A DNA stretch of 64,000 nt from IMG/VR virus record IMGVR_UViG_3300020220_004906, positions 11,463-75,462 of that record; one strand, given 5' to 3'. The DNA is from a virus. Shown here piece after piece: positions 8,834-19,846 of the stretch (positions within the stretch are counted from its first letter, which is position 1; the number at the start of each line of letters is the position of its first letter). Made by a program: the position numbers and the translations under genes. Below the pieces are notes generated by a model. It had not been told where the DNA came from and made no database searches. It worked only from the letters and a program-made list of their open reading frames with translations.

Positions 8834-9655
8834 ATGAGACTGGAAACACTACAACCCTATGGTGTAAAAATATACGACTCATCAGCTGATCAAGTATTAC
8901 GAGACACAGATAAGATCATCGACCTCATGATGCAAAACAAAATTTTAATTTTTAAGAACTTTGAGGCCACCCCGGATCAGTTGGTGGCCATAAACAAAAA
9001 ATTTGGCACACCCGTGCGGCACGCCAAGTGGAGGACCAATGCCCTCAAAACACATCCAGAGATATATGTGTTGCACAATGACAAGACCAAAGGACAATTA
9101 AGTCCGGAGATCTGGCACATAGACCAGTCATTCATGCAGTGTCCACCCACATTCAGTTTCTTGTATTCAATCACAGTGGCGCGGGTTGGCGGAACCACGA
9201 TATTCTCAGATCAGTCCGCTGTGTACAGAGATCTCCCCCTCGACATCAAAAAGAAGATCACAGGCAAAGTAGCAGTACACAAACACGCAACTGATTATTT
9301 TTCATCTGCTGTGCCCACGCAAGAAGAGTTGAAAGAAATGCATGCGGACGATTTGGTGTATCATCCCCTGGTTATGCCGCATTGGATATCAGGAGAGAAT
9401 TGTTTATTTTCTGTGTATGGTCACATACGACAGATATTGGGGCTCAGCAAGGAAGAGAGCGATCGCCTGTTAGAGGAGTTACGCAGATATGCCACCAATG
9501 AAAAATATGTGTATGAGCATCACTGGGACAGGAAGGATTTTCTTATCTGGGACAACATCAGCATGCTGCATTCTGCCAAAGGAACAATTGACAGCCTCGA
9601 TGATCAATATTCCAGAGAGATCTGGCGAATGAACAGCCGACACGGCGACGTCTAA
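8834..9655 (+). CDS. TauD/TfdA-family 2OG dioxygenase
   Basis: WHIDQSF, GGTT, HPLV..H, WDNISMLH, terminal R. Confidence 0.9.
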   Translation: MRLETLQPYGVKIYDSSADQVLRDTDKIIDLMMQNKILIFKNFEATPDQLVAINKKFGTPVRHAKWRTNALKTHPEIYVLHNDKTKGQLSPEIWHIDQSFMQCPPTFSFLYSITVARVGGTTIFSDQSAVYRDLPLDIKKKITGKVAVHKHATDYFSSAVPTQEELKEMHADDLVYHPLVMPHWISGENCLFSVYGHIRQILGLSKEESDRLLEELRRYATNEKYVYEHHWDRKDFLIWDNISMLHSAKGTIDSLDDQYSREIWRMNSRHGDV

Positions 9656-9736
9656 TTTTCAATCAAAATTTCAGCACGCTAACTTACGCTGTCGCTTGTT
9701 GGAAAAAAATTGCGCTGACGCAGTGCGTCTAAAATA

Positions 9737-11428
9737 TCAGCTCTTGGTAAAATTCTCTAGCACGAATGTTTTGGCGTCATAGCATTCTACATAGTCGGAA
9801 TTGTTGGCGTGCCTCACAGTGCCTTGTCCCCAGATCACGTCCTGATCATGCAAGGACACAGCACGCTTGATTGTGACATCGATATATTGTCCGTTACCCA
9901 CACCCAGCGTGACGAACGTGATGTACTGTCCCCGATCTCCACGAAATATCCTACCATTGGCTACCAGTCCTGCGAATTCAACTCGATCCATGTACAATTC
10001 TTTCACGTACAATCCGTCAAGAAATTTCTTGCCTGACCACCAGCCGTATTTCCTATATTGGAACTGCGGAGTGTCCCATCGATCTGAGCAGGAGGGAGTA
10101 ACTACCTCCAGTCCCGCACGCTTGCTTTCTAATTTGTACACCCAGCGACGATAGGAGCCCTGGCAGTGCTTCATGCAGGCCTCCCAGAATTTCTTGTTGT
10201 TGTGTGCCTTTTGATAGGCCAGTGCCCAGATTAGCCTGCCTAAATTCACCGCGTGTGCTCGGCACAGTCCAAAACCCGAAAGGCTCTGCAGCATGGTTAT
10301 TATTTCTGATTTCCTTGGATGGTTGCCCAGTCTCGTGGTGAATTCTAAAATTTTTTCTTCGTTTTTCTTGGCGAAGGCGCGTCTGTACATGTCGGCTTCG
10401 TATTTGTCTATGTCCAGCACTTCTGCTATTCTGTCTATGGCGTCATCTTCATACACTATGGTGTCCTCCATGCGCTCTTGGCTCCAGTCATGGAACATGG
10501 TGGCCTTCTTTCTGCCGGACACGGCCACTGGCCTTATGAGGGCAGTGGCGAACACGCAGTCCTTCCTGCTGGTGGGTTTTATCGCTCTGAAAAGTCTCCT
10601 CATCGCGGGCGACTCCGCCTGGGTGACCCCCAGCACGTCACCTCTGCACAGCAGTTCTGCCGTGGCATCATCGCGCTCGGGATATTCTGTCAGTTTTGTG
10701 TGTGGGTCGATCTCCAGTAATTGGCTCAGCCCTCTGTTGGCCAGTATGTCTACCTTGAGGTGTTCCAGGTCCTCCACTTCGTTCTTGTCCAGCAGTATCT
10801 GATTTTCAGCTGTGAACAGGCTTTTTGGCAAGGCTCTGCCGAACATCAATATTCCGCCGCAGTGTTTGGATATGCATCTCTTCTTCCCCAGCAATTTCTT
10901 CTCTATCCTAGCGGCCTCCCTGATGTCGATGTTGAGAGACTCATATTTGAAATTGCGAGGCAGATTGCCCTTTGCACCCAATCTCTTTGCAGCTTCTCTT
11001 CTCGCACTTTTGTCCCTGTACAGCACATAATTGGATATCCTGGCGGATCTTCCGGGCCAGCGATCGAATATTCTCTGCATGACCTCCTCCTGTTTGTGGT
11101 GTGGGAAGTCTATGTCCACGTCCGGGAGGTCGTCCCTATTGGGATTGAGGAAACGTGCTATGGGTATGTTCCATTCTATGGGATCCACATCAGTGATGCC
11201 CAACAGATAGCACACCAAGGATGATCCCGCGGAGCCCCTGGTCATGTGTGGTATGTCTCTAGTCAGAGACATGATGTCACATATCTGTATGAAGTAATCT
11301 ACGAAGCGTAATTGCAGTATGATCTTGGTTTCCTCGGCCAGACGCTGCGTGTGTTGTTCCGAGTCCGGACACTGCCTGATGAATCTTTCGTACAGCCTGG
11401 TTATGTCGTTTAGTTCCTGATCTTTCAT
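9737..11428 (-). CDS. dnaE: PHP-less DNA polymerase III alpha (DnaE-like, family C)
   Basis: RGSAGSSLVCYLLGITDVDP, PDVDIDF, HCGG, KVDIL, GVTQAES, C-terminal OB-like region. Confidence 0.9.
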   Translation of the reverse strand: MKDQELNDITRLYERFIRQCPDSEQHTQRLAEETKIILQLRFVDYFIQICDIMSLTRDIPHMTRGSAGSSLVCYLLGITDVDPIEWNIPIARFLNPNRDDLPDVDIDFPHHKQEEVMQRIFDRWPGRSARISNYVLYRDKSARREAAKRLGAKGNLPRNFKYESLNIDIREAARIEKKLLGKKRCISKHCGGILMFGRALPKSLFTAENQILLDKNEVEDLEHLKVDILANRGLSQLLEIDPHTKLTEYPERDDATAELLCRGDVLGVTQAESPAMRRLFRAIKPTSRKDCVFATALIRPVAVSGRKKATMFHDWSQERMEDTIVYEDDAIDRIAEVLDIDKYEADMYRRAFAKKNEEKILEFTTRLGNHPRKSEIITMLQSLSGFGLCRAHAVNLGRLIWALAYQKAHNNKKFWEACMKHCQGSYRRWVYKLESKRAGLEVVTPSCSDRWDTPQFQYRKYGWWSGKKFLDGLYVKELYMDRVEFAGLVANGRIFRGDRGQYITFVTLGVGNGQYIDVTIKRAVSLHDQDVIWGQGTVRHANNSDYVECYDAKTFVLENFTKS

Positions 11429-11465
11429 TGCCTTTTTTGCCTATTATTGCCTTGAGCAATATTAG

Positions 11466-12167
11466 TTATCTGGTCAAAGGTTGTGCGGAAATTTTTTGGT
11501 GTTCTCTCAATTTACTTTTAGGTATGTCAACATCTCTGCGATCACAAGCTGCTTTAATAATACAGGTGTCACACAGCGGACTGCGTGATTTACATACCAT
11601 TTTCGCATGAGTGATCAACCACATGTGGGCCCCATATTTGTATGATTGAGGAGTGGTAGCATTCACAGTGATAGATGCTTTGCTTTCATCCAAAGAATCC
11701 ACCCAGCCCAATCTCCACAGCATTCTGAATACATGGGTGTCCACTGCTATGTGTGGCTGTCCCCAAACAAATCGCATCACGATATCTGAGCTCTTGCGCC
11801 CCACGCCGGGCAGTGTCATCAATTCCTCTTGTGTCTGTGGGACCTTGCCATTAAATTTTTCTATCAGCATCTTGCTCGTGGCCAATATGTTTTTTGATTT
11901 TGCGTTGAACAGCCCGGCCGGGCGTATGGCTTCTATAATTTCTTGCTGGGTGAGTTTGAGCATGTCTTCGGGGGTGCTGGCGAGGGAGAACAGTTGCCTG
12001 CAGGCGACCGCCGTCCTAGCGTCCTGTGACTGGGCGCTGAGCATCACACCTATGAGGCTGGTGTATGCCCTGGAATAGATTTTAGCTTTGGGCTTACGAT
12101 TGGAGTGCGTGGGATAGAGCTGACTTAGTTTTTCATAGATATAAGATATGTCGTTACTGTTCTTCAT
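11466..12167 (-). CDS. nth: Endonuclease III (HhH-GPD glycosylase/AP lyase)
   Basis: LSAQ, LPGVGRK, VDTHV, C-x6-C-x2-C-x5-C 4Fe-4S motif. Confidence 0.93.
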   Translation of the reverse strand: MKNSNDISYIYEKLSQLYPTHSNRKPKAKIYSRAYTSLIGVMLSAQSQDARTAVACRQLFSLASTPEDMLKLTQQEIIEAIRPAGLFNAKSKNILATSKMLIEKFNGKVPQTQEELMTLPGVGRKSSDIVMRFVWGQPHIAVDTHVFRMLWRLGWVDSLDESKASITVNATTPQSYKYGAHMWLITHAKMVCKSRSPLCDTCIIKAACDRRDVDIPKSKLREHQKISAQPLTR

Positions 12168-12823: not shown

Positions 12824-14260
12824 TTACTGCTCTTCGTCTGAATGAAGATCATTTAACAATTGTCTCAACTTGCTGCCTTCCACTGTGGCTCTGATTTTAC
12901 CCACTTCATCCCCCTTGGTTGGATCTGGTTCTATCCTCGCATCTGTGGCAGTGCCGTCTGGCGAAATTTTGCTTCTCTGTTTTAGATTGTCATATATGGT
13001 CGATGTTTGTTTTTTAAACTGTTGATACTCTGGATCATCTGCAAGATCTCTTATTCGCAATGTGTCCACATCAAATTCTAGATCCACTTTCTGCCCTACG
13101 CCGCTGCTGCTCCTAGTCTTCATGAACTGCAGCTGATATCTACCACGCTCCTTCATCGCTCGACTAGTGAATATACCAAAAACGTTGTCTGCTGTCTGTA
13201 CCTTGCTCAATCCGCCCGCTATGTGGCTGTGGTCAAATTCAATTTCCTCCACAGATGCCCTATTCAGCTGTGACGCTGTGGCCATCAGCATTTTGGATTC
13301 CACGGCCAAATTCCTTAGCTCCTCTGACACGTACTTGTCTTTGATGAACAGGTCTGCCGGTGATACTCGTTTGCTCTTGGGCATCATGAGATCGAGATAA
13401 TCAATCAATATACAATCTATTTTTCTTTTAGATTTGATCTCTAATTCTTTTATATATGTTTTTATATCTAATACTGTGCTGGCCGATGGCAAATATTTGA
13501 TTTGCAGATTGCCTGATTTCTTAGCGAGCAGTTTGATCTTCATTTCAACGTTTTCGATCTCGGGAAATATTTTCCTTGTGGGTATATTAGTGATCATAGC
13601 ATCCAATCTCATCGCCACCAACATCTCGCTCAATTCAAAAGTGATATAACAACAGTTCAAGCCAGAGCTGGCCCAGTTCACCGCTAGATTTTGTAAGAAC
13701 AAAGATTTACCTGCACCTGATCCGCCTGCAAATATGTTCAGCTCACCGCGATTGAATCCACCAAACAATTTCTTGTCGATGCTGGGCCAACCTGTGCTGA
13801 CCTGTCCATTAGAGTTTTTTAATCGCTCTAATCTACCTCGAGGATCCTCGAAGTAATCCGTACCCATGTCTCTGGTCAATCCAATATTGACCGCTGCCTT
13901 GATCTTGTCTTCCACAGGAGCATAATCACCATGCTCTAACAAATCTGCAGATTCCAGTATGGCACGTGAGAGTGCTTTGTGTCGGGAAAACGTTTCGAAC
14001 TCATCTAATAACCAAGAGAAATGAGATGGGTCTAAATCTTTTGCTGATTTTAATTTGATGTCAAACTTGGCATTCACTTGCTCAACTTCCGGCAATACCT
14101 TATACTGCTCGGCATAGTCTTTGATAAATTTTGCGATGGGTATCAATTTTCTATCAAAATTATTGCTGTCAAAAATATTCTGTGATCTAGCGTATGATTC
14201 CGCATCAGCCAATAACATTTCTAGATATAATTTTTGTACGTCGAAGGTATAGTCAGCCAT
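12824..14260 (-). CDS. Replicative helicase (DnaB/T4 gp41-like)
   Basis: GGSGAGKS, IDYLDLM, ASQLNR, KTR. Confidence 0.93.
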   Translation of the reverse strand: MADYTFDVQKLYLEMLLADAESYARSQNIFDSNNFDRKLIPIAKFIKDYAEQYKVLPEVEQVNAKFDIKLKSAKDLDPSHFSWLLDEFETFSRHKALSRAILESADLLEHGDYAPVEDKIKAAVNIGLTRDMGTDYFEDPRGRLERLKNSNGQVSTGWPSIDKKLFGGFNRGELNIFAGGSGAGKSLFLQNLAVNWASSGLNCCYITFELSEMLVAMRLDAMITNIPTRKIFPEIENVEMKIKLLAKKSGNLQIKYLPSASTVLDIKTYIKELEIKSKRKIDCILIDYLDLMMPKSKRVSPADLFIKDKYVSEELRNLAVESKMLMATASQLNRASVEEIEFDHSHIAGGLSKVQTADNVFGIFTSRAMKERGRYQLQFMKTRSSSGVGQKVDLEFDVDTLRIRDLADDPEYQQFKKQTSTIYDNLKQRSKISPDGTATDARIEPDPTKGDEVGKIRATVEGSKLRQLLNDLHSDEEQ

Positions 14261-14284: not shown

Positions 14285-15472
14285 TTATAACACATTTTCT
14301 ATTTGAAGCCACTCTAAAAATGTTTTTGGAAATATTTTTAAATCGAGGTTCTTACGTCTTTTTGTGAATTCACATAGGAATTCTCTGATGTTCTTCCTTT
14401 CCAACTCGCTGGGCTCTTGTTTTATTGATTTTAATATAGGTTCATAAACACTTTTTGGTAATGTTGATAGATCCTGTGCAATCAAATCCTTGCTCTTTTT
14501 ATCAATGATGTGCGGACTCATCATTCTTGGTTGATAGGAGAACGTCACAATTATTTTATGTGATTTGTATTGGTCGTAAAATTTTTTGAATCCAAACAGG
14601 GTGAGATTGGATAATGTTGAATGAAATTCAAAATTAATCTTTTCTTTTTTAAATATATCAATCTTGTGAGAAAACTCTATCCATTTGACACCGTATCTAT
14701 TAAATTCTAATAGTTGGTCTATGTTTTCAGAACTTATTTTTACAACAAGATTTTTTATTTTTTTTATTTTTCCTATCATGTTCAAAAATCTAGAATTACT
14801 TAGACCTAGACCTGTGTACATTTCTATCTGTGTCATAGCGGGTAGATTTAATTGTTCTAAAGTATCTATGAGAGCATTATCTAACAATGGTTCTCCACCA
14901 GTTATAACTAATTTTTTCAACTTTGCTGCAGATAGTTCTATCTCTTTCAATAAGATTTTGTAGTGCTCTGTATTTTTTAATTTTGATTGACTGATTCTCA
15001 ACATGAACTTGTCTTTGATGTTGCCTTGATATCTATCATCCTGAGAATCCGTTATATCATAATTGCCATTGGTTAGGACGTCTCTCCTCCAGGCATTGCT
15101 GTATTCTTTGCAACAGTATGAACAGGTTAGATTGCAATCCGCTCCTATGGTCAAATCGATTATCTCTGGCCGTGTGACAGCTTCTTGGTGTGTTTTTTCC
15201 ACGCCGCCCTGATACAACCTTGGGCTTTGTGCGCCGTTGTCTTCTGCTTTCCAGCAATTCTGTTCGCAACTGGCATTGCGTTCGTTTCTTAACATTTGCT
15301 CTCGTTCGAATACATTCACTTTGCTGTTAAAAAGATTACCGGGGTTTTCTTTCAGCCAATCGAAATCTATTGAATGCGGAGCTGCCGCATGACAATTATA
15401 TGTTGTTTTAGATCCTAAATCAATTTTTAGGAATTTAAATTTCATTGAACAATAATAGTTTCTACTGTCCAT
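14285..15472 (-). CDS. Radical SAM protein (twitch-domain type)
   Basis: CNLTCSYC, GGEP; similar layout to 1731-3023. Confidence 0.85.
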   Translation of the reverse strand: MDSRNYYCSMKFKFLKIDLGSKTTYNCHAAAPHSIDFDWLKENPGNLFNSKVNVFEREQMLRNERNASCEQNCWKAEDNGAQSPRLYQGGVEKTHQEAVTRPEIIDLTIGADCNLTCSYCCKEYSNAWRRDVLTNGNYDITDSQDDRYQGNIKDKFMLRISQSKLKNTEHYKILLKEIELSAAKLKKLVITGGEPLLDNALIDTLEQLNLPAMTQIEMYTGLGLSNSRFLNMIGKIKKIKNLVVKISSENIDQLLEFNRYGVKWIEFSHKIDIFKKEKINFEFHSTLSNLTLFGFKKFYDQYKSHKIIVTFSYQPRMMSPHIIDKKSKDLIAQDLSTLPKSVYEPILKSIKQEPSELERKNIREFLCEFTKRRKNLDLKIFPKTFLEWLQIENVL

Positions 15473-16481
15473 ATCCTTTTTTCCTCAAATCTATTTTTAA
15501 CGCTGAAGATTCTGTAGATTTCAATATTGATTGTAGGGTAAACAATCTACCATATTTAGATACGGCGTCAGCAACGTCGATGACGCTGTGAGGCCATTGC
15601 GGAAATGCCACGCTCCAACCAAAATCCTTGGCCTGTTCTATAAGTTTTTGTCCTGCTTGATCTCTATCTGGCACAACAATAATCTGCCTATTTAGGCCTT
15701 GTATCAACTCCCTTTGTGTATCACCAATTTCGGAACCCAATATAGCAACCCCGCTCAATGATATGGCATCAAACGGTCCCTCCATGACCAACACAAATTT
15801 TCTCTGCCAGTCTTGGGCATCCATATTGAACACATATCCTGGTTGTGTCTCTGTCCAATATTTCATTTCTTTGTTACCAGTGTCAAACAATCTACCAGTA
15901 TGTCCAATTATTTCACCATGCCAATAGAAAGGCACAATCACCCTGCGATGGAAATCAGCAGTCTGATCTGGAGAATAATAAAAATCATACCAATCGGGCT
16001 CAATGCCTCGTCTCTTCAAATAATTTAGTAATTGATCTATTTTTTCGTACTGAGCAGTTGTGAGATCCTGTGCAAGATATTTTTCTAACCAAATTTCTAA
16101 CTTGTGGGAATTTTTAGGCAGTGATTTTTTTTGAAAAGTTATAAATTTTTTCTTTTCATACTTTATATCAGCTTCTTCATGACGCATAGCCTCTATGGCT
16201 AATTTTTTAATGGTATCTTCAGCGATACCTAGCCATCCCATAAGGGTTTTCATCTTGATGGACAGCTTACGACCAATGACATAAGATGCTGTATATCCAC
16301 AATTGAAACAGTGATAACTGAGAGTACCGTCTGCAGATGTCATTACTCCACCACGTTTTCTCTTATCGGTGGACTCCCCATTGTATACACAACAAGGTGC
16401 GTTAAAACTTAACCAACCCGATGGTGTTTTTTTCCTTCCGGCCGGCAAGGATGTCAGAATAGTAGATTGGATCAGGTTCAT
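15462..16481 (-). CDS. DNA primase (gp61/DnaG-like)
   Basis: Zn finger ..CC..HCFNC, TOPRIM EGPFDA and PDRD. Confidence 0.85.
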   Translation of the reverse strand: MNLIQSTILTSLPAGRKKTPSGWLSFNAPCCVYNGESTDKRKRGGVMTSADGTLSYHCFNCGYTASYVIGRKLSIKMKTLMGWLGIAEDTIKKLAIEAMRHEEADIKYEKKKFITFQKKSLPKNSHKLEIWLEKYLAQDLTTAQYEKIDQLLNYLKRRGIEPDWYDFYYSPDQTADFHRRVIVPFYWHGEIIGHTGRLFDTGNKEMKYWTETQPGYVFNMDAQDWQRKFVLVMEGPFDAISLSGVAILGSEIGDTQRELIQGLNRQIIVVPDRDQAGQKLIEQAKDFGWSVAFPQWPHSVIDVADAVSKYGRLFTLQSILKSTESSALKIDLRKKGYGQ

Positions 16482-17324: not shown

Positions 17325-17699
17325 ATGAATGAAATTTTTGAAACATTAAAAAATAAATTCCCGTTTTTATCCCTTATACGCAAAGGAGATTTAGAATTTG
17401 TTGGAATCATACAAAATCAAGATAATCAAGTCACAAGCTTCTATGACTATGGGCGTATAATGTTGCCAGCAGATAAAATGAAATTCTTAAAACTGGGTGA
17501 AATGTGGTGGTGGGAATCCAATAGAAAAATTCCTATCAACATATTTTTGAAGAAAGATTTTTTGTATTTCAAACCAACGTTGGTAACTTTATCCAGCAAA
17601 GACATTAAAATAATGCATGGACCTGTGGTGAGATTAGAGGATATTTCCAAGAAAAGAGTCAAACGCCGAACTATACAGCTGATGCGCAGGCCGATTTAA
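17325..17699 (+). CDS. Hypothetical phage protein
   Basis: WWWESNR motif; start moved to ATG 17325. Confidence 0.7.
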   Translation: MNEIFETLKNKFPFLSLIRKGDLEFVGIIQNQDNQVTSFYDYGRIMLPADKMKFLKLGEMWWWESNRKIPINIFLKKDFLYFKPTLVTLSSKDIKIMHGPVVRLEDISKKRVKRRTIQLMRRPI

Positions 17700-17949: not shown

Positions 17950-18513
17950 CTATTTATTTTTCCTTATCAAATTCATCTGAACTACAATGGCCTGAGCATA
18001 GGCAACAGCATGAGACTTTTTAAAATAGTAGCTTTCGTCTGAAGGTTTCACCCACACTTCTTTTAATATTTCCGTCCAGTATTTGTGCATGAGATGCCGC
18101 TTGGCAGGTCTGATTATTGCCAACACCGCCGCCAGCTGTTCAATATTTTTTGGTTCCAATTTATATACTATATCGAAATGGCCATTGATATGGAACAATT
18201 GATCCACAATTGTTTTATCTTTTAACATGTCCCAGTCTGGTTCTTCCAGCATCAACTCAACTAATTCCTGTTCTGTTTTCACGCCTTCATAGAGATTAAC
18301 GTTTAGCAGATCTATTTTAAAATAACCACGATCTTCTGCTCTTTTAAAATCAAAACTGCACGAGCCCAACATTGGGTCCACAGGCACTTCATGAAAGTAC
18401 ACGCCTGTCTTGTGTTTTTCTATCTCCTCGTCTTTGATTATGGATGCTGGCACATGTTTAAACAATTTGAGTGCGTGTTCTCTATTGGCAAAATCTATGT
18501 CTACGTCTGGCAT
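17950..18513 (-). CDS. Miniature DnaE-like (Pol III alpha palm/finger) protein
   Basis: MPDVDIDF, HKTGVY, GYFKIDLL, LAIIRP, FKKSHAVAYA in only 187 aa. Confidence 0.85.
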   Translation of the reverse strand: MPDVDIDFANREHALKLFKHVPASIIKDEEIEKHKTGVYFHEVPVDPMLGSCSFDFKRAEDRGYFKIDLLNVNLYEGVKTEQELVELMLEEPDWDMLKDKTIVDQLFHINGHFDIVYKLEPKNIEQLAAVLAIIRPAKRHLMHKYWTEILKEVWVKPSDESYYFKKSHAVAYAQAIVVQMNLIRKNK

Positions 18514-18737
18514 CAGTTATATTTCCTCCTGTTGTTTTCTTTTCTTATCAAACTACCCTTTTCCTTATCGATAAATTCTAACACATCCAAAGTCAATTTA
18601 TAACCCTTGCTCTCCTGGGCGGGGTTGCTTACTTCGGGCAGTATCACCTGTCCTATTGAACCATCTTCTTTTATTACTATGATGCAATCTCCCACTGCCA
18701 CATCTATGCTTTCATCGATGACAATTTTATCACTCAA
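18513..18737 (-). CDS. Hypothetical protein
   Basis: TTG start preceded by GGGAGG. Confidence 0.6.
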   Translation of the reverse strand: MSDKIVIDESIDVAVGDCIIVIKEDGSIGQVILPEVSNPAQESKGYKLTLDVLEFIDKEKGSLIRKENNRRKYN

Positions 18738-19416
18738 TTTTGGCCTCCCGAGCTGTTTCCTGCACAAAGATCGCATCCGCAGGAGATGATTTAAATTTGT
18801 TTGACCAATACTCAGGGTTGATAAACCTTTGTATCATTTGTAATTGTTCATCCGAGAGAGTTTGTAGCATTTTTTTCCCAGCGCTGCAACCAAGTATCAA
18901 CCACGGAGACAACTTGCCGTTTTGTATATGTTGCACAGCCCGCGGAGTGTTGACCAAACGGAAATAATCTGCCCATTGTACATGTTGTTCCTCTGCCCAA
19001 TCCATCATGGTTTGTATTGATCTAGTAAGGGCTGCTTCCACTGGTTCTGACTTTAACATGTCTATGAGATATGCTTCATAGAGATCGTCTCTTGCCCAAT
19101 GATCTAATTTTATTCTTGATTTGATTATGTAATCGATATACTTTTCAGGATACAGGGGACTCACATGCATGATGTATCTGCCAAATTTCACAAAAGCATT
19201 GTAGTAGGCGCTCTTGCAAAAATCTTCATAGGATTTTGGTTTGCCATTGTTCTGATGTATCTCATAGAATCTCTGGAACACCATCAGAGCGTTCTGCACC
19301 CACTTCTCATTTTTTTGCAGATGTCGACGTTTGGGTTCACACACATGCACCTGCAGAGTTCTCTCTTTCGTGAAACTCTTGCCGCAAAATGTACAGGTGT
19401 TAAGATTGCTTTCCAT
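18730..19416 (-). CDS. C2H2/C2HC zinc-finger protein
   Basis: CTFCGKSF..LQVHVC. Confidence 0.75.
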   Translation of the reverse strand: MESNLNTCTFCGKSFTKERTLQVHVCEPKRRHLQKNEKWVQNALMVFQRFYEIHQNNGKPKSYEDFCKSAYYNAFVKFGRYIMHVSPLYPEKYIDYIIKSRIKLDHWARDDLYEAYLIDMLKSEPVEAALTRSIQTMMDWAEEQHVQWADYFRLVNTPRAVQHIQNGKLSPWLILGCSAGKKMLQTLSDEQLQMIQRFINPEYWSNKFKSSPADAIFVQETAREAKIE

Positions 19417-19846
19417 GATCTTCTAGCAGTTGTTCTAGTTCGCCGTCGGTGATGATCTTATCCAGCGCTTCGAGGTCTAGCATTTTGGTGTTAGGATAGA
19501 TGTCCATCAGAGTTTGTAGTGATTTATTTACATTCTTCTTCATGGGTTTGATCCATGGATGGAACTGTTGTTTCAGCCCCCCGCACATGGCAGTCAAAAG
19601 CCAACATAATTTTTTATGTTTGCCGCTCAATTCAAAAAGATTTTTATTAACACATTCGTTGATCATTTCCACGTAGTGCTCTTGATAAAATCTATCCCCG
19701 GACACTGCGGAGGCATACCTCATAGTCATGTAAGGACTGTATAATGATCTCTCATGTTCATCGATACGATCATAGTAATCCTTGTTACGAAAGTCTATGG
19801 CTTTCATGCTGTTTCTTAATTCAAAAAATTTTTTCTTTTCACTCAT
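19400..19846 (-). CDS. Clamp-loader small subunit (T4 gp62-like)
   Basis: YSPYMTMR..N..HPWIK pattern, size and replication context. Confidence 0.6.
   Translation of the reverse strand: MSEKKKFFELRNSMKAIDFRNKDYYDRIDEHERSLYSPYMTMRYASAVSGDRFYQEHYVEMINECVNKNLFELSGKHKKLCWLLTAMCGGLKQQFHPWIKPMKKNVNKSLQTLMDIYPNTKMLDLEALDKIITDGELEQLLEDHGKQS

Follow-up and report, generated by a model that had tools for sequence, protein, structure and literature searches.

Among the DNA polymerases encoded by jumbo phages is an unusually small enzyme of the C family that is distributed over two genes. Iyer, Anantharaman, Krishnan, Burroughs and Aravind (2021, Viruses 13:63; PMC7824862) predicted it from jumbo-phage genomes and described it as a "minimal, split DNA polymerase III alpha" of the group 2.2 jumbo phages. 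According to the same study (PMC7824862), phages with the split version have a family B DNA polymerase and contain no other Pol III domains, and the role suggested for the split enzyme is templated accessory synthesis, such as repair, gap filling or the synthesis of one strand. A literature search for biochemical characterisation of any member of this family found none. As a predicted polymerase, the split mini-Pol III, whose two chains add up to about 365 aa, represents the smallest known C-family core. It has been put forward as a model of what the ancestral bacterial replicase looked like, and it offers a well-defined target for biochemistry.

The C-family polymerases of known structure, DnaE (E. 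coli, 2HNH; Taq, 2HPI/3E0D) and PolC (3F2B), provide the standard against which such a reduced enzyme can be compared, the canonical DnaE/PolC chain being longer than 900 aa. In DnaE, as in pol-beta-fold enzymes, the incoming triphosphate is bound by a strand, a GS loop and a helix. Cyanobacteria, too, have a DnaE-type polymerase whose two genes lie far apart, as those of the split mini-Pol III do; there the dnaE gene is interrupted at a different site from mini-Pol III and the break is healed by protein trans-splicing. The two halves of a split intein need roughly 100 and 35 residues.

Here we describe a locus from an uncultured aquatic lineage whose product, judged by its sequence, is a member of this already described family and not a new kind of protein. 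The window, that is, the whole stretch of 64,000 nucleotides that was analysed, comprises bases 11463-75462 of a 75,462-bp IMG/VR record with a CheckV completeness of 14%. The protein of interest (P0001; Table 1) is likely to be one half, the C-terminal one that binds Mg2+ and the template, of a minimal C-family polymerase made up of two polypeptides, the group 2.2 'split minimal Pol III alpha', and is referred to below as the C-unit. It is like the group 2.2 enzyme in its length, in its start at the DxD strand, in its motifs and fold, and in its location in a primase/DnaB block. It differs in being at most 55% identical to the copy of any isolated phage, and in that its lineage has a 563-aa PHP-less DnaE which complete group 2.2 relatives are without; moreover, neither the N-terminal unit (N-unit) nor the family B polymerase is on its fragment. 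The present window leaves the picture of the split enzyme unchanged in kind. To this picture are added thousands of aquatic-metagenome sequences, strong purifying selection, at least one fused form of 375 aa, and coexistence with a second stripped-down DnaE in one lineage.

Table 1. Coordinates of the C-unit gene, its coupling signals and other genes of the window (position 1 is the first base of the window)
Feature	Position	Strand	Remarks
C-terminal unit of predicted split minimal Pol III alpha (P0001)	17950..18513	-	187 aa; phrog_11778, E 4e-65
Translational coupling signals	18513..18529	-	read from sequence
87-aa ORF, stop overlapping the C-unit start	18513..18776	-	in 72/80 close relatives, median 51% identity
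Zinc-knuckle protein, all-alpha	18730..19416	-	228 aa; phrog_11058 (unassigned role), E 5e-61
Convergent downstream ORF	17325..17699	+	phrog_11637, E 1e-29
Primase	15462..16481	-	homologous and syntenic to annotated DNA primase of Phosso
DnaB-type replicative helicase	12824..14260	-	syntenic homologue of Phosso 'DnaB-like dsDNA helicase' and Atu_ph07 'primase/helicase'
Single-chain PHP-less DnaE (P0002)	9737..11428	-	563 aa; PF07733, E 1e-41; PF17657, E 6e-15

The open reading frame of the C-unit is real, and an identical protein is also encoded on a 144.5-kb contig. Its motifs run in the order MPDVDIDF (residues 1-8, with D3 and D5), HKTGV (34-38), KIDLL (66-70, with K66 and D68), LAAVLAIIRPA (127-137, with RP at 135-136) and FKKSHAVAYA (164-173, with KKSHAxAYA at 165-173). 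A first-pass annotation, made from the letters of the window alone, had reported this series of motifs, a start exactly at the DxD strand and a clean coupled boundary, all of which are borne out. The ATG (18511-18513) shares one base with the TGA (18513-18515) of the upstream 87-aa ORF in the arrangement TGATG, a GGAGG is located at 18525-18529, 11 nt 5' of the start, and the gene that follows begins 4 nt past the C-unit stop. The same annotation had taken the protein for a piece of a C-family (DnaE-type) polymerase core from which the PHP, RGS, HhH and OB regions are absent, and profile and structural comparisons agree. In a Pfam search the sole match was a sub-threshold one to DNA_pol3_finger (PF17657, E 0.029), and a genome scan with PF07733 did not detect the ORF; none of the PHP, GS-loop, HhH and OB regions of the canonical chain has a counterpart in its 187 aa. 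The hG[GS] loop that lies N-terminal to the DxD, an element of a complete pol-beta-fold core, is missing from this chain, which opens at M1-P2-D3, and a scan of the window for the G[GS]-loop motif found none except in the second DnaE-type protein (P0002).

An AlphaFold2 model of the C-unit, built from its own alignment, has a pLDDT of 96.5 and a pTM of 0.87. With so confident a model for the single chain, independent folding of the C-unit is possible, and the modelled fold is that of the palm and fingers of a C-family polymerase. The best 17 matches of a Foldseek search against the PDB are all C-family polymerases, as are the top 14 chains found by VIA, in which the best unrelated chain reaches Z 3.4. 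VIA places the model on residues 461-836 of Taq Pol III alpha (3e0d_A; Z 9.7, rmsd 3.7, 185 aligned residues), on residues 400-779 of E. coli alpha (2hnh; Z 9.1) and on residues 971-1294 of PolC (Z 9.4). The alignment with DnaE and PolC (Z 9.1-9.7) extends over all 187 residues: the palm strands with the Asp triad and the lysine are homologous, and the HxxGV strand, RP and KSHAxAYA are common to both sides. A family profile aligns D3/D5 to MPDIDTDF of Taq (from residue 461), K66/D68 to LLKMDF, and RP and KSHAxAYA to the matching motifs of Taq and E. coli; a phmmer search of the PDB sequences with the single C-unit sequence found nothing meaningful, whereas the profile search did match.

What separates the C-unit from DnaE and PolC is the extent of its reduction. 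It covers only the Taq and E. coli stretches given above, compressed about two-fold, so that some 375 DnaE residues correspond to 187 in the structural alignment. The spacing from DxD to the third Asp is about 150 residues in Taq versus 63 in the C-unit, and that from RP to KSHA is about 115 versus 30. As only 29 residues separate DxD from HxxGV, the thumb is essentially gone; the PHP domain, the GS-loop half of the palm, and the clamp-binding/HhH, OB and tau-binding regions are likewise lacking in comparison with DnaE and PolC.

The match to phrog_11778, a family of 197 positions annotated as 'DNA polymerase', has an E value of 4.1e-65 and joins residues 3-185 to profile positions 8-193. By tblastn, full-length copies that are 36-55% identical to the C-unit were found in 96 phage genomes. 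Each of these genomes belongs to a large or jumbo myovirus; among them are Atu_ph07, Phosso, PA5oct, XacN1, SCTP-2 and a Rak2-like set, and some of the copies, for example that of phage Phosso, carry the GenBank label 'DnaE-like DNA polymerase III alpha'. The metagenomic C-unit family is considerably larger, with 7592 proteins of 102-328 aa that fall into 441 clusters at 50% identity; it occurs on at least 432 IMG/VR contigs and in Tara and other marine assemblies, and a 234-kb metagenome contig carries a C-unit 74% identical to the one described here. The strength of the profile match, taken together with 7592 homologues of similar length in 441 clusters, places the resemblance beyond chance. 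The first-pass annotation had asked whether an already characterised family might explain the protein; the family had indeed been described, in Iyer et al. (2021), in PHROGs and in GenBank, but biochemically characterised it is not, as far as the literature search reached.

Conservation was assessed in 96 diverse homologues with a mutual identity of at most about 50%. D3 and D5 are each kept in 94 of the 94 sequences that have a residue at the position, and D68 in all 96. K66 and P136 are likewise found in 96 of 96, R135 in 94 of 96, and H34, G37, K165 and H168 in 89-94; the catalytic and finger residues D3, D5, D68, K66, R135, P136, K165 and H168 are 92-100% conserved. The lengths of the homologues cluster at about 185-215 aa, and in nearly all of them 0-11 residues stand ahead of the DxD. 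Against close IMG/VR relatives the C-unit has a dN/dS of 0.02-0.05, an estimate that is trustworthy for the closest three relatives, dS being saturated beyond them. These values indicate that the C-unit is under strong purifying selection. Length, Asp triad and synteny, the three properties that the first-pass annotation had proposed to follow through related phages, are thus all conserved, the last of them in the gene block described below.

The palm elements that the C-unit does not have are encoded elsewhere in the genomes of Atu_ph07, Phosso and the majority of its complete relatives. In the first two of these, PF07733 detects an N-unit ORF of 177 aa, the end of which falls just past the GRGS helix ('...GVGRGS...EFL[EN]stop'); in the unbroken 563-aa DnaE, the stretch equivalent to the N-unit is followed by '...PDVDIDF', which corresponds to the start of the C-unit. 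The N-unit family consists of 26 sequences of 165-192 aa, in which G143, G145, R146, G147 and S148 are invariant. All 26 stop within a few residues of 'EFL', and the N-unit ends a few residues past '...EFL[KR]', at the place where the C-unit starts. The genes for the two units lie 11-180 kb apart in relatives, and the same phage genera carry N- and C-units in nearly identical numbers. Of 10 large IMG/VR genomes picked for their N-unit, 8 have a C-unit as well, and the two units also occur together in G020 and G021. A 543,035-bp IMG/VR genome rated 100% complete (G006) carries an N-unit at L178 (PF07733, E 4.5e-10), and no C-unit was detected in it with the present protein as query; its C-unit is either very divergent or truly absent.

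Both units have also been found in a single chain. The metagenomic protein P0175, with 375 aa, consists of an N-unit and a C-unit with a linker of 10 residues between them at the expected junction; it forms a singleton cluster, comes from a 2415-bp ENA metagenome contig and so has the weight of one observation. A second candidate for a fused form, the 350-aa protein P0123 on an ENA contig of 2036 bp, was rejected. In this protein an unrelated N-terminus is followed by the last 120 or so C-unit residues, and the 'long form' is probably an assembly chimera.

A complex of the two units was modelled with a separate alignment for each chain, using as a stand-in the N-unit of another phage, G010, a complete 328-kb IMG/VR genome that is the closest complete relative and has a C-unit 60% identical to the present one. 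The ipSAE was 0.91 in three runs versus 0.00 for the best of 3 controls; of 80 solved complexes 58 attained that mark, and of 110 mismatched pairs only 2 did. Since both chains are halves of a fold that has been solved as one DnaE chain, this pass may reflect that likeness. The runs share at least 91% of their contacts, and the pLDDT of the partner is at least 91. In the model, residues 138-151 of the N-unit (strand and GRGS loop) contact residues 2-9 of the C-unit (DVDIDF strand), which is the beta-sheet complementation to be expected if a pol-beta-fold palm is divided after its first helix and ahead of its second strand.

No N-unit was found in the 75-kb record, 14% complete, by a protein query, by PF07733 or by an N-unit HMM run on six-frame translations, and we therefore infer the partner of this particular copy; its gene is predicted to lie outside the fragment. 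Within the window the HMM matches only the unrelated 563-aa DnaE. Nor did it find an N-unit at a distance of up to 10 kb from the C-unit in any of 80 related IMG/VR contigs, and five larger related IMG/VR contigs, one of them a 122-kb contig of a sister lineage, had none when scanned over their full length. A further 15 records that bear an N-unit were scanned, and the closest C-unit among them is 46-53% identical to the present one. The 20-kb neighbourhood of the N-unit in G010 has no counterpart in the record, which suggests that the N-unit region is off the fragment and was not deleted from a conserved context. A search for a family B polymerase with PF00136 gave no match in the same 75-kb fragment, which represents 14% of a genome.

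The C-unit gene is part of a conserved block. The order helicase, small ORFs, zinc-finger protein, C-unit, convergent ORF, virion protein, primase and DnaB is kept in Atu_ph07, Phosso and G010 and in 57-77 of 80 IMG/VR loci, and homologues of the primase and of DnaB are found in 57-58 of the 80 related loci. The primase gene is 1.5 kb downstream of the C-unit, with three small genes between them. Upstream, the C-unit is adjoined by the zinc-knuckle gene in 77 of 80 close loci and in 11 of 13 distant ones; downstream, its neighbour is the convergent ORF in 76 of 80 and 12 of 13, Atu_ph07, Phosso and G010 included. The 87-aa ORF was not detected in distant relatives. A zinc finger had been noted in the upstream gene by the first-pass annotation, and the N-terminal CCHC knuckle of its product is confirmed by C8, C11, H24 and C26, which are invariant in 25 homologues. 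The AlphaFold2 model of this protein has a pLDDT of 93; Foldseek found no match in the PDB at E <=0.001, and the best hit of a wide VIA search had Z 4.7. The T4 gp59 helicase loader was considered as its fold and rejected, the match being weak (Z 4.0, rmsd 12.2, 168 residues). The ORF at 19400-19846, a putative gp62-like gene in the first-pass annotation, matches only phrog_11758, a family of unassigned role.

A separate DnaE gene is located 6.5 kb from that of the C-unit. Its product, P0002, has no PHP match in Pfam and is characterised by an RGSAGSS loop, LPDVDIDF, KVD, ALIRP and an OB-like tail. The gene lies directly downstream of an endonuclease III-like gene, and this cassette (9737-12167) is syntenic in 13-14 related IMG/VR contigs only. 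A gene of this type is absent from five group 2.2 genomes that were checked, of which three have a completeness rating of 100%; there PF07733 detects the N-unit alone. The sole relative among isolated or deposited phages is encoded by the uncultured huge phage LR756508.1 (38% identity), and neither split unit was found in that phage. P0002 and this relative have the C-family core and PDVDIDF in common with the C-unit. Unlike the C-unit, P0002 combines in one chain an RGS loop of its own, an insert of thumb length, more complete fingers and the OB-like tail, and BLASTP detects no similarity between the two proteins apart from the motifs. P0002 is context and not part of the split enzyme, and its presence beside the C-unit qualifies the claim of Iyer et al. 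(PMC7824862) that there are no other Pol III domains.

In the two-polypeptide polymerase that we propose, the C-unit supplies two beta-strands with D3, D5 and D68, together with the invariant K66 and a reduced finger base (RP, KKSHAxAYA). Not part of it are the elements for holding the incoming triphosphate, namely the first strand, the G-R-G-S loop and the helix, which in relatives are carried by the separate N-unit of about 177 aa. The two units may assemble by beta-sheet complementation, in which the N-unit strand that precedes GRGS would form a pair with the DVDIDF strand, and the product would be a non-covalent heterodimer core of about 365 aa that is without the PHP (proofreading), thumb, clamp-binding, OB and tau-binding modules. 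Given that it has no PHP, thumb, clamp-binding or OB module, such a core would presumably be distributive by itself. The heterodimer is probably an accessory polymerase that copies a DNA template, whether in repair, in gap filling or in the synthesis of one strand, beside the other polymerases of the phage; a plain replicative role is less obvious, since the lineage already has another DnaE-type enzyme.

Two readings of the gene had been put forward in the first-pass annotation, in one of which the protein would be a purpose-built minimal nucleotidyltransferase that acts on its own in primer extension, protein priming or DNA modification. Three catalytic Asp residues, K66, R135, K165 and H168 are indeed present in this one chain, it folds confidently as a monomer, and the record shows no partner gene. 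However, the strand, the GS loop and the helix that bind the triphosphate are not part of it, which makes a self-sufficient enzyme very unlikely; a dedicated protein with exactly those elements co-occurs with the C-unit across genomes, the split point is fixed, and the fused form P0175 exists. The other reading, in which the protein is one subunit of a polymerase encoded by several ORFs, was the better option, and it stands as far as the subunit is concerned; it fails in its choice of partners among the neighbouring ORFs, for in relatives the partner is a distant N-unit. A polymerase built instead with the 87-aa ORF, the zinc-finger protein, the convergent ORF or the primase might be suspected from the near-invariance of the zinc-finger and convergent ORFs (76-77 of 80 close and 11-12 of 13 distant loci) and from the translational coupling of the C-unit start to the 87-aa ORF. 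The N-unit HMM and Pfam find no missing palm half among these neighbours, though, the model of the zinc-finger protein is all-alpha and unlike a polymerase in fold, and adjacency may reflect shared timing only, the block being a conserved cluster of replication genes. The adjoining ORFs could be accessory factors on top of the N-unit; that they replace it is highly improbable.

The abrupt beginning of the protein inside the palm domain could also be that of a remnant, either of a full-length DnaE in decay or of a DnaE half that a split intein splices back to its counterpart, as happens in cyanobacteria. The pseudogene alternative, raised in the first-pass annotation, is refuted by the invariant triad, the fixed length and the dN/dS of 0.02-0.05, which are found in a family of 441 clusters. 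With regard to an intein, the N-units end about 2-10 residues past the helix and the C-units start 0-11 residues before the DxD. These ends lie too close to the junction to leave room for intein halves, and a non-covalent heterodimer of N- and C-unit is therefore to be expected; the probability of either kind of remnant is practically negligible. A different question is whether the heterodimer, once formed, is a specialised nucleotidyltransferase that carries out untemplated tailing or makes a primer-like product, modified nucleotides or a signalling nucleotide. It is without the thumb, clamp-binding and OB elements on which processive synthesis depends; the carrier phages already have a family B polymerase (PMC7824862), and this lineage has a DnaE as well. 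These other polymerases in the same genome somewhat favour a non-replicative nucleotidyltransferase role. Against it, the retained RP and KSHAxAYA are finger motifs of templated C-family polymerases, the gene lies in a helicase-primase block, and none of the observations points to another product, so we regard a specialised enzyme of this kind as unlikely. There is also a small chance that in this lineage the mini-Pol III has become a nucleotidyltransferase module, perhaps together with its two near-invariant neighbours, or that the C-unit works with a non-canonical partner: since strong selection keeps it beside a PHP-less DnaE that is complete and, presumably, beside a family B enzyme too, it may not be a redundant replicase. 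The split, templated accessory polymerase remains the reading that we prefer.

Elsewhere in the record, DctP-like genes 5' of the window (G000, 9600-11138) show 65-88% protein identity to genes at L133:18015-19080, which lie 8 kb from an N-unit on a 77.8-kb IMG/VR contig (G016). As the DctP-like genes are all that nucleotide and protein overlap finds in common between this contig and the record, the two are not linked. Between the primase and DnaB genes lies a radical-SAM gene (14285-15472) that has a homologue in only 11 of 80 related loci and appears to have been inserted into the replication block in this lineage specifically.
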